Positions 1 to 4,018 of a stretch of DNA of 4,018 nucleotides are shown here, piece by piece. A program made the position numbers and the translations under genes. Origin of the DNA: a virus (Duplodnaviria > Heunggongvirae > Uroviricota > Caudoviricetes). How positions within the stretch are numbered: position 1 is the stretch's first letter; each line of letters starts with the position of its first letter. The notes beneath the pieces were generated by a model. The model ran no database searches and was not told the origin of the DNA. It worked only from the letters and a program-made list of their open reading frames with translations. The stretch covers positions 1-4,018 of the IMG/VR virus record IMGVR_UViG_2534682108_000008; one strand, given 5' to 3'.

Positions 1-33
1 ATTGGAGCACCTGTGTTGTTCTGAGGTGAGCAT
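1..33 (-). CDS. 5' end of the gene downstream of terL (possibly portal or head-morphogenesis protein); only 11 codons in window
   Basis: On the minus strand the terL stop TGA (47..45) is followed by ACAGAGGTGAT then ATG at 33..31. GAGGTG is a good Shine-Dalgarno, and the frame stays open to the window edge (MLTSEQHRCSN...). Position directly after terL suggests translational coupling. Product identity is inference from typical gene order only. Confidence 0.3.
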   Translation of the reverse strand, partial: MLTSEQHRCSN

Positions 34-44
34 ATCACCTCTGT

Positions 45-1613
45 TCAGGTGGCCAAATTCAGTGTGCCACTACATTCCGATAATGTGCCTGACCAGCGGA
101 TCCCTGATATTCCATTATTCAGGAGCGTTTTCATTCCTTCGGTCAGAACAGGTTTGCTCTGACGGGTTGTCAGCCAGCCAAGGCGGGGCGTATCGTCATC
201 ATATGCCTGATCAAGGTGCTGTTCGTTGTAGATATAACGCGTCGGATAGAGCTCCCTGAGTTTCAGAATAACGGCATGTCCGTGATTGTTACGCTCCGGC
301 CCCACAAACGCGTTGTTGTACATACGGCAGACCTGCGCAATGAGATGAGCAAAAAGCTCCGCATCAAGATGACCAAACCAGTGGGCCACCTGCTCACCAT
401 TACTGCATCTGATGATATCCAGCGATGAGCGGTCCCCGTGCTCAAGCCCCTCAGCAATATCCGCTCCGCAGACATACTCTTCATCTGGATCCGGTAGCTC
501 CCAGACCATCAGATAATTCATCAGCGTCCGGTGCTGTTCGGCTTTATTCCCGTCACGCAGAGACTGCGCTTTAGTCTTCCTTCCTGTAACAGGTTCAATG
601 TCATAAACAATCAGCGGTGGCGAACAGAATGATTCTGCCTGCAACGTACTTTCGGCACTGAACACACGTCGTCCGGACGTCAGAAACGCCTCCTGTGGCG
701 TTGAGGGAAACTCCTGCTTCATTTCCTCACGCTGTTCAGTTTCCTTATTGATGTACCACTGCTTCTGTTCATCAGTAAGCGTGATGTTCATTGCCTTCTC
801 AACCGCAGAAAAATACGTCATTTTTTCCCGTGACAGCTTCAGCCCGCTTTCCGGCACTCTGGCGCTGTATTTAGGATCCTGCCACCAGGCGTAAAAATGG
901 AATTTATAATCCTGTGCCGTCAACGATAAGCCTGATGCAGTGATCTCCTGTGCTCGGTTACTCATCTCGTAAAAATCACCACCCACGCCTTCAGCAGTGG
1001 ACTCATCAAAAATAATGCATTCATCAGAGACGGCATTAAGCGTACCGGTTCGCAGTTCTTTCGCCTTAGCCGGATATTTCGCGCAAATTTTGCCGTGCTC
1101 TGAGATATGCAGGCGCTGCACCGTACCTGAACGGAATGAGGTTGCCACCTGGATACTCGAGCCGTGACCAAACAGGATATAGCCACCGCTGGCACCGCTA
1201 CGACGTTCAACGATGGTGAATGAGGCTCTCAGCCAGTCAGGGAGATGATCAAACGGTACAGCAATTTTTGTGCGGAAAATTTCACTGGCAGCCTGTTTAT
1301 CCTGAGCGACGATCCCGCATTTGAGATGCGGAATGAATAATGCCTGGTCGAGAAGATAAATATCAATGGCTGTGGAAAATCCCAGCTGGCGCGCTTTCAG
1401 AATAATATTTTTATTGTGCATGCTCCGGAACAACTGGCGCTGCGCCGGTCGCATTCTGAAGGTGACCAGTTCACCTTTTTCGTTCTGTATTTTGTAGAGA
1501 TGATTGAGCCGCCACCAGGGATTGCTCAGTTTAGTCATGATGAACAGACGTTGTTCAGCCTCGGTCATTTCTGACGGCTCATCACATCGCGGTTCATTCT
1601 TCCGGAATGTCAT
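45..1613 (-). CDS. phage terminase large subunit (TerL), 522 aa, complete
   Basis: Longest ORF in the window. ATG at 1613..1611 with GGGGAGA Shine-Dalgarno 4 nt upstream on the minus strand. N-terminal ATPase-type motif KARQLGFST resembles the T4 gp17-type Walker A (SRQLGKT). C-terminal segment VCGADIAEGLEHGDRSSLDII has the acidic pattern typical of the RNase H-like terminase nuclease domain. Its start overlaps the upstream small-subunit gene by 20 nt, and it lies downstream of a lysis cassette. No homology search was run. Confidence 0.85.
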   Translation of the reverse strand: MTFRKNEPRCDEPSEMTEAEQRLFIMTKLSNPWWRLNHLYKIQNEKGELVTFRMRPAQRQLFRSMHNKNIILKARQLGFSTAIDIYLLDQALFIPHLKCGIVAQDKQAASEIFRTKIAVPFDHLPDWLRASFTIVERRSGASGGYILFGHGSSIQVATSFRSGTVQRLHISEHGKICAKYPAKAKELRTGTLNAVSDECIIFDESTAEGVGGDFYEMSNRAQEITASGLSLTAQDYKFHFYAWWQDPKYSARVPESGLKLSREKMTYFSAVEKAMNITLTDEQKQWYINKETEQREEMKQEFPSTPQEAFLTSGRRVFSAESTLQAESFCSPPLIVYDIEPVTGRKTKAQSLRDGNKAEQHRTLMNYLMVWELPDPDEEYVCGADIAEGLEHGDRSSLDIIRCSNGEQVAHWFGHLDAELFAHLIAQVCRMYNNAFVGPERNNHGHAVILKLRELYPTRYIYNEQHLDQAYDDDTPRLGWLTTRQSKPVLTEGMKTLLNNGISGIRWSGTLSECSGTLNLAT

Positions 1614-2409
1614 CCAGTCTCCCCGAATTACTCATTTCATGCAGCGATGACACGATGTCACTGACAGGCGTAACAACGCCCCGACGCTGGCTGGTCAGAA
1701 TATCGGTTTCAGCTCTGAGTTTATCTCTGGCTGCGTTGATTCTTTCCCGGTCAGCACGAAGTTTTGGTGCTGTCTCAGCCAGGACGTCCAGTGTCAGCAA
1801 AGAACGTTCAATTGATTCTATACGGGCAATATTCCGGTCAAGAGCCTGTTCGGCTTTAAGTATTTTGTCGTACAGAGCTACCCGTGTTTCCACGTCAGCC
1901 GCCTCTTTCAGGTCGGCGAACATCTTTTTCAATGTTCCTGTTACTGAAAGTGCGCGGGCACGGGTAAACACCAGTTCATCGGCAAGTTCCATTCCGACTG
2001 CATCATCTATGAGGTTATCTGCCTCGAGATACTTCGCGTATCCACGGTGTCTGACGGCGTGGGTGTTACGCTGAGAAAAAGCATTTGAAGGTGGCAAAAG
2101 TCTGGAACCACGAGTCCGTTTCGTTTCTGCCAAATTTGCGCATTTTTCATCACAACCATCATCGCCTGAAGGCTCGTCATGACTGGAGTTGCCGTCAGAT
2201 TTCTGCGCACTTTTTTGATCATCAATTTGCGCATTTTTCTGCGCACTTTTCTCTGTATTTCTGGGGGAGTGTTTGCGCAGTTTAATGTACCGCCGAGCCG
2301 TGTCATAACTGATATTGTTCTGACGGCACCAGTCCTGAAGTTTTATGCCGGTTCTGACATGTTCGCGTCGAAATGCCTGCTCCAGCTTTTTCCAGTCCAG
2401 CTTTGCCAT
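1594..2409 (-). CDS. phage terminase small subunit (TerS)-like DNA-binding protein, 271 aa
   Basis: ATG at 2409..2407 preceded by AAGGTGAC on the minus strand. N-terminus (KLDWKKLEQAFRREHVRTGIKLQDWCRQNNISYDTARRYIK) is basic and helix-turn-helix-like. A Q/K/D/E/S-rich low-complexity linker (SAQKNAQIDDQKSAQKSDGNSSHDEPSGDD) is followed by a helical C-terminal region with heptad character. Stop at 1596..1594 overlaps the terL start by 20 nt in a different frame, the classic terS-terL arrangement. Assignment rests mainly on position and architecture. Confidence 0.65.
   Translation of the reverse strand: MAKLDWKKLEQAFRREHVRTGIKLQDWCRQNNISYDTARRYIKLRKHSPRNTEKSAQKNAQIDDQKSAQKSDGNSSHDEPSGDDGCDEKCANLAETKRTRGSRLLPPSNAFSQRNTHAVRHRGYAKYLEADNLIDDAVGMELADELVFTRARALSVTGTLKKMFADLKEAADVETRVALYDKILKAEQALDRNIARIESIERSLLTLDVLAETAPKLRADRERINAARDKLRAETDILTSQRRGVVTPVSDIVSSLHEMSNSGRLDDIPEE
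2133..2283. repeat. cluster of five TTTGCGCAnTTTT-type repeats (palindromic TGCGCA core) inside terS
   Basis: TGCGCA cores at 2137, 2204, 2228, 2240 and 2274, each flanked by T-runs. A 16-bp exact direct repeat AATTTGCGCATTTTTC occurs at 2133..2148 and 2224..2239; a 15-bp exact repeat TTTCTGCGCACTTTT at 2200..2214 and 2236..2250. I found only one other TGCGCA in the window (334..339). Confidence 0.6.
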
Positions 2410-2847
2410 GTCACCTTCTGACGTTCTCTGTTAAAAACTGATGCACAATGACTGCTGTAAATTTTCAGATTTCACACAGCAGAGCCATGTCTGATTAATG
2501 TTTAACCTTATTTAGGTTATATCCGCTTCATTCCACTACAGCACCAGACAGGCGGCCTCGCGGATAAATGCTAAAGTCTCCTGATATAGAAACCCGTCGC
2601 CACATCGAGCGCTGATCAACATTTGTATATTCACTGCGACAGAAAGAATTTATTTTATTGAATAGTTAGAAATACAGAATTACATGCTTTATAAGCATTG
2701 ACGTACACTTCATTTTTAGCAATATATTCTGTTCTCATAGACGATCAGCCCTGCATGCACTGCCGGACACCGTCGGCAATTTTACAGACCTAAGAGGCAA
2801 TACCAAAAAGCTAACGCGCTTTATCAAGACTTGAGCAACCAACCAAT

Positions 2848-2876
2848 AAAAAAAGCACCAGTACCGCTACCAGTGC
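2848..2876 (-). terminator. rho-independent terminator-like hairpin, oriented for minus-strand transcripts
   Basis: Minus-strand RNA reads GCACUGGUA-GCGG-UACUGGUGC followed by UUUUUUU. That gives a 9-bp stem (7 Watson-Crick plus 2 G.U), a GCGG tetraloop and a 7-U tract. On the plus strand the same stem has a 2x2 C-A/A-C mismatch and no clean U-tract, so it is mainly a minus-strand element. Confidence 0.5.
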
Positions 2877-2943
2877 CCATTTCGTCGTTGTTCACAGCAT
2901 TCTGTGTACCCACTGTATTTCGCGTCATATCACCACGTCAGAC

Positions 2944-2980
2944 AATCCTTAAGGATTACATAAGATTTACGCATAATAAT
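2944..2980 (+). promoter_or_regulatory. candidate promoter/operator of the Ais-like gene: 14-bp perfect palindrome, PmrA-box-like direct repeat, and -10-like CATAAT
   Basis: AATCCTTAAGGATT (2944..2957) is a perfect palindrome. CTTAAG-gatta-CATAAG (2948..2964) matches the YTTAAK-N5-YTTAAK PmrA/BasR box pattern at 11 of 12 positions. CATAAT/TAATAAT at 2972..2980 is -10-like, about 35 nt upstream of the preferred ATG at 3012. Spacing between box and -10 (7 bp) is shorter than I would expect, so this is tentative. Confidence 0.35.
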
Positions 2981-3011
2981 GCCCATTTTCAACACAGACA
3001 AGGGAATTTAT

Positions 3012-3593
3012 ATGTTAAATCAAACGCTAACAAAATCTCTTCTTATATTTTTACTTGTCATAATCGTTTCTGTATCCATCATACACATTGTAAGAACTCC
3101 AGTCAGACTTGATGTGAATGATGTCACTGAGATTAACCAGAAACATCCCATTATTTTTCTCATCCGGCATGGGGAAAGATGCGATCGCTCCCAAAGAATA
3201 TGTCTTTCAGCACATGAGGGAATCACAGTAAACGGAGCTAACAAAGCTCAACAATATGGAGATAAATTCAGAAGAATGTTTCCATACTACAGTCTCTATT
3301 CTACAGACACACTCCGAACAATGCAGACAGCCACTTTTTTTTCGGGAGGTAAGACAGCAACTATTCCGGACATATCGACATGTGATGATAACGCAGTAAA
3401 TAACATCCTTAAAATATCAAAATCAGATCACGTTACTGTGATTTTCACACATAATCACTGTCTGTCCAGAATTGCAAAAAAAATGAATGGATGGAGATTT
3501 AAACCTGATTATATGGGCACACTGGTTCTGCATCGGGAAAATCACAATCTGATTCTCGACGGACATTTAAAACCAAACGAGCTTACCCAGTGA
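3012..3593 (+). CDS. Ais/PmrG-like periplasmic histidine phosphatase (LPS core heptose(II)-phosphate phosphatase family), 193 aa; phage moron candidate
   Basis: Preferred start is ATG 3012 with AAGGGA Shine-Dalgarno 6 nt upstream; the ORF-track start at 2979 has no SD. N-terminus MLNQTLTKSLLIFLLVIIVSVSIIHIV is a signal peptide or anchor. The motif FLIRHGERCDRS is the catalytic RHG signature of the histidine phosphatase superfamily. CLSxxxGITVxG and VIFTHNHCL...FKPDY align, from memory, with E. coli Ais (VLFRHAERCDRS...GITVKG...IVIFTHNHCL...FKPDY). The gene is on the opposite strand to all flanking phage genes and is AT-rich (roughly high-30s % GC by sample count, versus 50s % in terL). Confidence 0.75.
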   Translation: MLNQTLTKSLLIFLLVIIVSVSIIHIVRTPVRLDVNDVTEINQKHPIIFLIRHGERCDRSQRICLSAHEGITVNGANKAQQYGDKFRRMFPYYSLYSTDTLRTMQTATFFSGGKTATIPDISTCDDNAVNNILKISKSDHVTVIFTHNHCLSRIAKKMNGWRFKPDYMGTLVLHRENHNLILDGHLKPNELTQ

Positions 3594-3644
3594 TCCATTT
3601 GTTGATAATGCCCTGGCATTGATTCAGGTTGTATCTCTCCTCAT

Positions 3645-3670
3645 AAAAAAGGCCAGCGATTGAGCTGGCT
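3645..3670 (-). terminator. intrinsic terminator directly 3' of Rz (minus strand); possibly bidirectional, also closing the plus-strand Ais-like gene
   Basis: Inverted repeat GCCAGC (3652..3657) / GCTGGC (3664..3669) with a 6-nt loop. On the minus strand the stem is followed by UUUUUU (3650..3645) and starts 4 nt after the Rz stop (3676..3674). On the plus strand it is preceded by an A-tract and followed by a weak CUGUU tract, 58 nt after the Ais-like stop. Confidence 0.55.
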
Positions 3671-3673
3671 CTG

Positions 3674-4018
3674 TTAATCGAGGCATTGCATCCTGATGTA
3701 CTCCTGCAGGTAGTTAACCTGCGCGGTTATCTTGTCGATTCCACTTCGGAGACGGTAATAATTGAGTTCAGCATCTGCTGTAAGTCCTGGGCTTTCTCCA
3801 TCGCCCATGCTGCTGGCTCCGGTCGTTGACTTTGCACAGGTGGCGACGACTTGCAGGCGCTTACGCCCAGCAGAAACATCAGCACGGAGACTTTCGATAG
3901 TCGCATTAGCATCAGCAAGCTCCTTTGTGTATCTGGCGTCAAGTTCTGCTACATCACGCTGCCGCTTCTGCATATCAGCGATGATGGATGTAGCTCTATC
4001 GCGCTGCTCTTTGTAGGC
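3674..4018 (-). CDS. Rz: Rz i-spanin (inner-membrane spanin), C-terminal part; N-terminus beyond the right window edge
   Basis: The frame is open from the window edge. Translation AYKEQRDRATSIIADMQKRQRDVAELDARYTKELADANATIESLRADVSAGRKRLQVVATC... aligns closely with lambda Rz (ITDMQMRQRDVAALDAKYTKELADAKAENDALRDDVAAGRRRLHIKAVC). The ORF-track start at 3973 is an internal Met. A +1-frame lipoprotein gene is embedded in it. Confidence 0.85.
   Translation of the reverse strand, partial: AYKEQRDRATSIIADMQKRQRDVAELDARYTKELADANATIESLRADVSAGRKRLQVVATCAKSTTGASSMGDGESPGLTADAELNYYRLRSGIDKITAQVNYLQEYIRMQCLD
3727..3912 (-). CDS. Rz1: Rz1 o-spanin (outer-membrane lipoprotein spanin), embedded in Rz in a different frame, ~61 aa
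   Basis: First true ATG at 3912..3910 is preceded by AAGGAG Shine-Dalgarno with a 7-nt spacer; the ORF-track start at 3942 is a TTG. Product MLMRLSKVSVLMFLLGVSAC|KSSPPVQSQRPEPAAWAM... has a lipobox (VSAC) followed by a Pro-rich mature region, like lambda Rz1. It lies entirely within Rz. Confidence 0.75.
   Translation of the reverse strand: MLMRLSKVSVLMFLLGVSACKSSPPVQSQRPEPAAWAMEKAQDLQQMLNSIITVSEVESTR

Follow-up and report, generated by a model that had tools for sequence, protein, structure and literature searches.

What does a prophage gain from carrying, between its lysis and packaging genes, a gene for an enzyme that resembles a chromosomal lipopolysaccharide (LPS) phosphatase, and what turns that gene on? 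Both questions are raised by a 4,018-nucleotide stretch of viral DNA (IMG/VR record IMGVR_UViG_2534682108_000008, positions 1 to 4,018; hereafter the window), in which a coding sequence at 3012..3593 on the plus strand, stop codon included, specifies a 193-residue Ais/PmrG-subfamily histidine phosphatase. The chromosome of Escherichia coli O157:H16 strain Res13-Lact-PEA12-26 (NZ_CP062876) contains the window at 100% identity, within a decayed lambdoid prophage of the Shiga toxin (Stx) phage type (Sepvirinae/Oslovirus) that is without stx. The phage genes of the window (terL, terS and Rz/Rz1) all lie on the minus strand, and the phosphatase gene lies on the plus strand. We consider it probable that this gene is a prophage moron whose product is anchored in the inner membrane, faces the periplasm, is switched by host BasR and acts on phosphate of the LPS core.

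The phosphatase and its family

A sequence-only reading of the window had described the product as Ais/PmrG-like with an RHG histidine-phosphatase signature, and profile searches bear this description out. The protein scored 202.5 bits against NCBIfam NF011945, the model of the Ais/PmrG subfamily (cutoff 142 bits, E = 4.9e-60), and covered profile positions 14-199 of 201. As controls, K-12 Ais scored 391.9 bits, Salmonella PmrG 366.1 and TraG of IncI plasmids 275.8, with the prophage types at about 200 bits. Pfam PF00300 (His_Phos_1) was matched at 28.8 bits over a cutoff of 21.7 (E = 1.1e-6), with only its N-terminal 67 profile positions aligned. Against the PmrG equivalog model NF052369 (cutoff 170 bits) the window protein reached 113.5 bits. 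Because K-12 Ais (145.8) and Salmonella PmrG (146.1) likewise fall below that cutoff, the miss is uninformative on membership, and we rejected it as evidence against an Ais/PmrG assignment. NF052369 seems tuned to a group other than the Ais/PmrG enzymes that named the family. RefSeq already names the phosphatase automatically, and the enzyme class is not new. Judged by its identity of 37% to K-12 Ais and 39% to Salmonella PmrG, and by its location on a prophage rather than at the arnB-adjacent locus, the window protein is a distant paralogue, not an orthologue, of the chromosomal enzymes.

The catalytic residues are retained. The RHG motif (R52-H53-G54), which contains the nucleophilic histidine, is encoded at 3165..3173 on the plus strand. 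R52, H53, R56, H147 and H149 are invariant across an alignment of 19 sequences that include Ais and PmrG, as are cysteines C57, C64 and C150. R102 is invariant in one of two such 19-sequence alignments and nearly invariant in the other. With the 19-sequence alignment as input, AlphaFold produced a confident model (predicted local distance difference test score 89, predicted template-modelling score 0.83), which gave 90 PDB matches at E ≤ 1e-3. The best 50 of these 90 are all branch-1 histidine phosphatases, with template-modelling (TM) scores of 0.45-0.60, among them the C-terminal domain of MutT1, SixA-like proteins, PGAM5, PhoE and phosphoserine phosphatase. As modelled, then, the window protein is a branch-1 histidine phosphatase with a phosphoglycerate-mutase-like alpha/beta fold. 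A sequence search of solved structures returned nothing at E ≤ 1 and no Ais/PmrG structure, PHROGs held no family for the protein, and PADLOC gave no match to it.

The N terminus differs from that of chromosomal Ais. A 19-residue hydrophobic segment (codons 9-27, 3036..3092 on the plus strand; mean Kyte-Doolittle hydropathy 2.96) is, by a heuristic, likely to be an uncleaved signal-anchor. It carries a charge of +2 on its N-terminal flank and -1 on its C-terminal flank, lacks an AXA-type site after the core, and is followed directly by a conserved RTP without a small-residue cleavage motif. The structural model shows a helix at residues 2-28 that spans the predicted anchor. This charge bias predicts an N-in/C-out orientation, in which an uncleaved anchor would hold the catalytic domain on the periplasmic side of the inner membrane. 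The three to four conserved cysteines, together with the hydrophobic segment, would heuristically fit a periplasm-exposed domain. To call the enzyme simply periplasmic therefore went too far: that location is a prediction, and the N terminus resembles an uncleaved anchor, unlike the cleavable signal of Ais.

The gene itself is well delimited. The annotation of NZ_CP062876 by the Prokaryotic Genome Annotation Pipeline (PGAP) places a coding sequence at coordinates identical to window 3012-3593. A Shine-Dalgarno sequence, AGGGA, can be read at 3001..3005 on the plus strand, 6 nt before the ATG, and other prophage lineages have an equivalent GGA or AGGA before the phosphatase gene. An alternative start at ATG 2979, which would give 204 residues, lies inside the predicted -10 hexamer described below and is not conserved in other lineages; we therefore rejected it and adopted the start at 3012 and the 193-residue form. 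Composition sets the gene apart, with a GC content of 37.8% (33% at third codon positions) versus 50.0% in terL, 49.0% in terS and 51.9% in Rz. Comparison of GC, strand and neighbours thus confirms an AT-rich, oppositely oriented gene between Rz/Rz1 and terS, as first described. Comparisons with five diverged lineages gave ratios of nonsynonymous to synonymous substitution rates (dN/dS) of 0.15-0.25, and comparison with the copy in E. coli O104:H4 gave 0.095. Values of around 0.2 imply that the protein is maintained by purifying selection.

A candidate PmrA/BasR-type promoter

A scan for sigma-70 consensus promoters detected no -35/-10 pair upstream of the phosphatase gene on the plus strand, and an activator-type promoter was therefore looked for. 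A candidate PmrA/BasR box, CTTAAG-GATTA-CATAAG, occupies the place of the -35 element at 2948..2964 on the plus strand, 64 nt before the ATG. A candidate -10 hexamer, AATAAT, follows exactly 10 nt past the box (2975..2980, plus strand) and was recognised from the sequence and from spacing shared with other promoters. The promoter of its own that the gene had been credited with thus survives as a conserved candidate of the PmrA-box type, and not as a sigma-70 -35/-10 consensus on that strand.

The layout agrees with what is known of this regulon. A PmrA box consists of two XTTAAY hexamers, 5 nt apart and overlapping the -35 region, in which TAA provides the specific contact bases (PMC10570014), and the verified box of Klebsiella pbgP reads CTTAAT/CCTAAG (PMC3973317). 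In K-12, the box is CTTAAG-N5-GTTAAT at arnB, CTTAAG-N5-CTTAAT at both eptA and pmrR, and CTTAAT-N5-CTTAAT at waaH, in each case followed by 10 nt (N10) and then by the -10 hexamer (TAAAAT, GAGCAT, CATACT and TAAAAC, respectively). Diverged prophage lineages repeat the pattern before their phosphatase genes. The type with 75% protein identity to the window (P0004) has the same box as the window, N10 and AATAAT; that with 73% (L005) has ATTAAT-N5-CATAAG, N10 and TATAAT; that with 64% (L009) has CTTAAG-N5-TTTAAG, N10 and AATAAT; and that with 59% (L031) has GTTAAG-N5-CTTAAT, N10 and TATATT.

The combination of box, N10 and -10 hexamer therefore occurs in five lineages, namely the window and four others with native upstream DNA, and it was found in all 20 IMG/VR loci having upstream sequence. 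Among lineages, TAA(G/T) is fixed, and the 5-nt spacer, the surrounding bases and the first two bases of the second half-site vary. Across 335 kb of fetched DNA, the composite motif had 14 matches, of which 12 stand before phosphatase genes, one before K-12 arnB and one before a prophage-borne waaH. The strict box, applied within K-12 loci, marks exactly pmrR, eptA and arnB. No box was seen in the non-phage relatives described below, nor where an insertion sequence (IS) had replaced the upstream DNA; IncI traG was not looked at. The candidate promoter appears to be of the activator-dependent, PmrA-box type, at which BasR would be predicted to bind and induce transcription. Control by host PmrAB, which the sequence-only reading had raised as speculation, thus gains specific support from a putative box with the spacing of bona fide BasR promoters in every prophage lineage examined, and it is the best-supported new element of that reading.

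The cassette and its slot in the prophage

In the lambda record, bor lies directly after Rz/Rz1 on the opposite strand, and the likening of the present slot to that of bor is correct. Homology to the closest sequenced phages without the gene, P13374 and phi191, covers only positions 75-2563 and 3681-4018 of the window. Since homology breaks at 2563/3681, positions 2564..3680 form a replaceable cassette, which takes the place of a Rha-like regulator segment in P13374 and phi191. The proposed cargo segment is therefore real, but its extent, set by the limits of P13374 homology, is wider than the 2848-3675 given earlier. With its deviant GC content and its presence or absence between conserved phage genes, it is a self-contained moron cassette at the lysis/packaging junction. 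The 154 nt upstream of terS (2410-2563) are common to P13374 and phi191 and belong to the backbone, outside the cassette.

The slot is shared across phages. Diverged versions of the gene, with 59-84% protein identity, all occupy one position between the lysis and packaging genes, where they converge on the final lysis gene at a distance of 40-85 nt. That lysis gene may be Rz, a GH108 endolysin or an M15 endolysin, and the packaging modules fall into four unrelated kinds: the 933W type (that of the window), Terminase_6N with ParB/TAGT, lambda Nu1/GpA, and an HK97-type TerL with HNH. An independent sample of IMG/VR viral contigs showed the same arrangement in 21 of 21 cases. In O104:H4 strain 2011C-3493, the phosphatase gene is present at 99.3% nucleotide identity in an apparently complete, stx-less prophage of the 933W type, whose gene set comprises immunity, Q, lysis, terminase, portal, capsid and tail genes plus cor and lom.

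Nucleotide search detected copies in 83 out of 5,426 complete E. coli genomes, and in 43 cases the identity was at least 99%. A tblastn search of a phage collection recovered the gene from a single record out of 50,697, that of phage GER2 (MG710528). There it is annotated as a 273-nt fragment (L002 9247-9519) and a 120-nt antisense "hypothetical protein", and its 193 codons are intact at 99% identity by tblastn. A literature search returned no paper on a prophage-borne Ais/PmrG or its regulation.

The sequence-only reading had also flanked the gene with terminator hairpins of its own, and this part did not hold. A GC-rich, terminator-like hairpin with a run of six T residues lies within the cassette at 3652..3669 on the minus strand, just after the Rz stop codon and between the convergent genes. 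The upstream hairpin (2878..2853) has its T-run on the minus strand as well, so both resemble terminators of the phage late strand, not of the phosphatase gene. Moreover, the upstream hairpin lies in the signal-peptide coding remnant of a decayed lipoprotein gene. This pseudogene (2745..2928, minus strand; hairpin at 2853-2878) derives from a 60-residue lipoprotein, phrog_7528 (7.5e-37), and is divergent from the phosphatase gene. The window copy has three in-frame stops and a 1-nt insertion, and the gene is intact in four other loci (L005, L007, L009 and L012). The intact lipoprotein has an LVGC lipobox and a cysteine-rich mature part, is divergently paired with the phosphatase gene elsewhere, and occurs twice in L009. 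A 34-residue open reading frame at 2824-2928 on the minus strand was rejected as a real small gene, being the out-of-frame start of this decayed lipoprotein.

The remainder of the window is phage backbone. The gene for the terminase large subunit, terL (45..1613, minus strand), has its C-terminus truncated by the end of an IS3-family element at window 1-74. These first 74 bases are unmatched in related phages and adjoin an IS3-family transposase in the source genome. With terL shortened to 522 codons versus 568 in GER2 and P13374, the window prophage cannot package DNA. The small-subunit gene terS spans 1594..2409 on the minus strand (phrog_370, 5.3e-118). The i-spanin gene Rz extends beyond the window end and is represented by its C-terminal 114 codons (3674..4018, minus strand; Pfam Phage_lysis, 6e-33), with Rz1 embedded in it at 3727..3942 on the same strand (Pfam Rz1, 6e-20). 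A 93-residue open reading frame at 2831-3112 on the plus strand and antisense reading frames within the phosphatase gene were set aside as mechanical and without support. An Rfam scan at E ≤ 1 gave a single chance-level match, outside the cassette region.

Proposed function and known systems

How might such a gene serve its lysogen? Being outside the late operon, it would be transcribed on the opposite strand from its own promoter. With a PmrA/BasR box standing where the -35 element would be, this promoter would be activated in the lysogen by the phosphorylated BasR (PmrA) of the host when Fe3+, Al3+ or mild acid induces PmrAB. The anchored enzyme would then act as PmrG does and strip a heptose-linked phosphate from the inner core of LPS. 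The cell surface would become less negatively charged, in parallel with the PmrA-controlled LPS modifications encoded by the chromosome. In a statement that cites Nishino 2006, PmrG is said to dephosphorylate heptose II (PMC8129183). Deletion of chromosomal pmrG in PmrA-constitutive E. coli left polymyxin B resistance unchanged (PMC8129183), which weakens the effect on polymyxin susceptibility that had been suggested for the prophage copy. Metal tolerance or an altered receptor would be more plausible phenotypes.

A second gene in one prophage bears on the substrate. Prophage L010 carries, besides the phosphatase gene, a 94%-identical copy of chromosomal waaH (6905-7989, minus strand) between the Q antiterminator and the holins, with a PmrA-type promoter of its own (ATTAAT-N5-CTTAAT-N10-TAAAAT). 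WaaH transfers glucuronic acid to Hep(III) of the LPS core, and its action is accompanied by loss of Hep(II) phosphate (PMC6358824). The association of the two genes in one prophage points to the heptose region of the core. The waaH copy occupies the slot in which Stx phages carry stx, and it adjoins an IS1 fragment.

Several points weigh against the reading of the gene as a BasR-switched LPS-core phosphatase. The box pattern, which has one match in the window versus 0.01 expected by chance, was defined after the site had been seen. The box might be conserved across lineages in part because a short promoter was inherited from a common ancestor, and not because BasR binds it, and the upstream region of K-12 ais is without a separate box at the corresponding position. 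The topology of the phosphatase comes from heuristics (hydrophobicity, charge and conserved cysteines), and the literature search found no experimental or transcriptomic evidence of its expression. Hosts already have chromosomal ais, which puts the added value of a second copy in question. Finally, with 37-39% identity and an NF011945 score about half that of true orthologues, the substrate could differ.

This last point leads to the alternative that survives best, although we regard it as unlikely: an enzyme of the same class that acts on another periplasm-exposed phosphate, with the RefSeq product name over-transferred. Candidate substrates would be Hep(I) phosphate or pyrophosphoethanolamine, a phosphate on 3-deoxy-D-manno-octulosonic acid (Kdo) or lipid A, or a lipid carrier. 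Such a shift would suit the low identity and the NF011945 scores (about 200 bits versus 366-392 for orthologues), the anchor that replaces the cleavable signal of Ais, and the occurrence of the clade on IncI plasmids and beside fimbrial operons; nor was a solved structure or substrate complex found for any family member. The active-site residues and cysteine pattern nevertheless match those of Ais/PmrG, and both the PmrA-type promoter and the co-occurrence with waaH point to the heptose region instead.

The wider family extends well beyond prophages. Homologues of about 45% identity are present on 1,440 plasmids of a plasmid collection, 1,383 of which are conjugative. On IncI-type plasmids the homologue is traG (for example, L028 4950-5462), with traF and traH on either side and the shufflon recombinase next to it. 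Relatives at a greater distance (43-70% identity; L013-L016 and L018-L025) have as neighbours fimbrial operons of the chaperone-usher or CS1 type, paired AraC-family regulators, EAL-domain proteins, or a serine protease autotransporter of the Enterobacteriaceae (SPATE). These loci are often IS-flanked, and none has a PmrA-like box. The broadest interpretation would be that the mobile-element clade, spread in enterobacteria over lambdoid prophages, IncI plasmids and fimbrial or virulence islands, forms a mobile extension of the PmrA regulon, in which the prophage copies and at least one captured waaH are wired to PmrAB. It would remodel inner-core charge on demand, and the element would profit not from resistance to metals or peptides but from conditional masking of an LPS-core receptor, which would keep out competing phages or conjugative pili. 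We offer this as a speculative proposal that is unlikely as a whole.

Receptor masking, as superinfection or entry exclusion, could also be the selected function in itself, with core phosphate removal blocking LPS-core-dependent phages or the thin-pilus adhesins of IncI plasmids and the PmrA-like box being incidental. The slot is a classical one for surface-altering cargo, as bor in lambda illustrates, and the O104:H4 prophage carries cor and lom as well. Homologues lie in IncI transfer regions next to the shufflon, which selects PilV adhesins that bind recipient LPS. However, exclusion would be expected to be constitutive in a lysogen and not tied to a stress-responsive activator, and short-tailed Stx-type phages of this backbone use BamA and are not known to use the LPS core. 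PADLOC gave no match. Transposon sequencing of the O104:H4 IncI1 plasmid pESBL scored traG as not required for transfer (PMC4288162). Taken together, these observations make masking with an incidental box improbable.

Two further explanations are very hard to sustain. In the first, the protein would resemble AfrS, serving primarily not as an LPS enzyme but to co-activate fimbrial or other surface genes together with an AraC-type partner. AfrS, together with AfrR, was reportedly needed for transcription of the AF/R1 pilus; one homologue bears the submitter name "transcriptional activator AfrS", and the neighbours of more distant relatives include AraC-family genes and fimbrial operons. Of the cluster members examined, only one gave the AfrS name: P0066 (E. 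coli UMNF18, AEJ57056.1), a frameshifted prophage copy of 150 residues. The prophage cassettes hold no AraC partner, an effect on transcription could be indirect, via the envelope, and a membrane anchor, conserved cysteines and intact phosphatase residues are ill-suited to a DNA-binding activator. Just as improbable is a silent or decaying passenger without function in the lysogen: the source prophage is decayed (terL cut by IS3, the neighbouring lipoprotein a pseudogene), some copies are frameshifted (L047 at 128 residues, L053 at 150), the gene is rare among complete genomes and AT-rich DNA is commonly silenced by H-NS, but dN/dS is low across lineages and lower still against the O104:H4 copy, the reading frame and promoter of the window are intact although the adjacent lipoprotein gene has decayed, and slot and promoter layout are conserved across phage backgrounds.

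If regulation by BasR and action on the LPS core are both true, the locus would show clearly how phage cargo can take over the promoter logic of a host regulon for envelope stress, and the lysogen would alter its LPS core only under PmrAB-inducing conditions (iron, aluminium, mild acid) of the kind met in the gut. The O104:H4 lineage of the 2011 outbreak has the gene, and its IncI plasmid carries a further homologue (PMC4288162).

The gene can be compared with several known systems. It is like chromosomal Ais (E. coli b2252) and PmrG (Salmonella) in its NF011945 subfamily, its length class, the residues RH[GA]ERCDRS ... THNHC and the cysteine pattern, and both sides are linked to the PmrA/BasR regulon, ais adjoining arnB in K-12. 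It is unlike them in having a long hydrophobic anchor followed by the conserved RTP where Ais has a cleavable THA|AW signal, in being carried by a prophage cassette and not next to the arn (pmrHFIJKLM) operon, and in having its own putative PmrA box at -64, a feature missing upstream of K-12 ais. IncI TraG (R64 nomenclature, "histidine phosphatase domain protein") is homologous and likewise borne on a mobile element, but it lies inside a transfer operon. Lambda bor and morons of the lom/cor type are similar in being self-contained, envelope-affecting units with a GC content below that of the phage backbone, and bor shares the slot after Rz/Rz1, on the opposite strand and before the packaging genes. 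Bor, however, is an unrelated outer-membrane lipoprotein of serum resistance and not an enzyme, whereas the window promoter appears to depend on a host two-component system. With the promoters of arnB (pbgP), eptA (pmrC), pmrR and waaH (yibD), the candidate promoter shares two XTTAAK half-sites, a 5-nt gap, a replaced -35 element and N10 to the -10 hexamer. Its second half-site, CATAAG, is one departure from TTAA, for which CCTAAG in Klebsiella pbgP offers a parallel. Unlike those bona fide promoters, it lies on phage DNA, and BasR binding to it is predicted. Surface-modifying morons in the bor slot are already familiar, so the finding is incremental and no new kind of system. What is new is a mobile-element clade of paralogues, its fixed slot after the lysis genes across unrelated phage backbones, and its conserved PmrA-type promoter.

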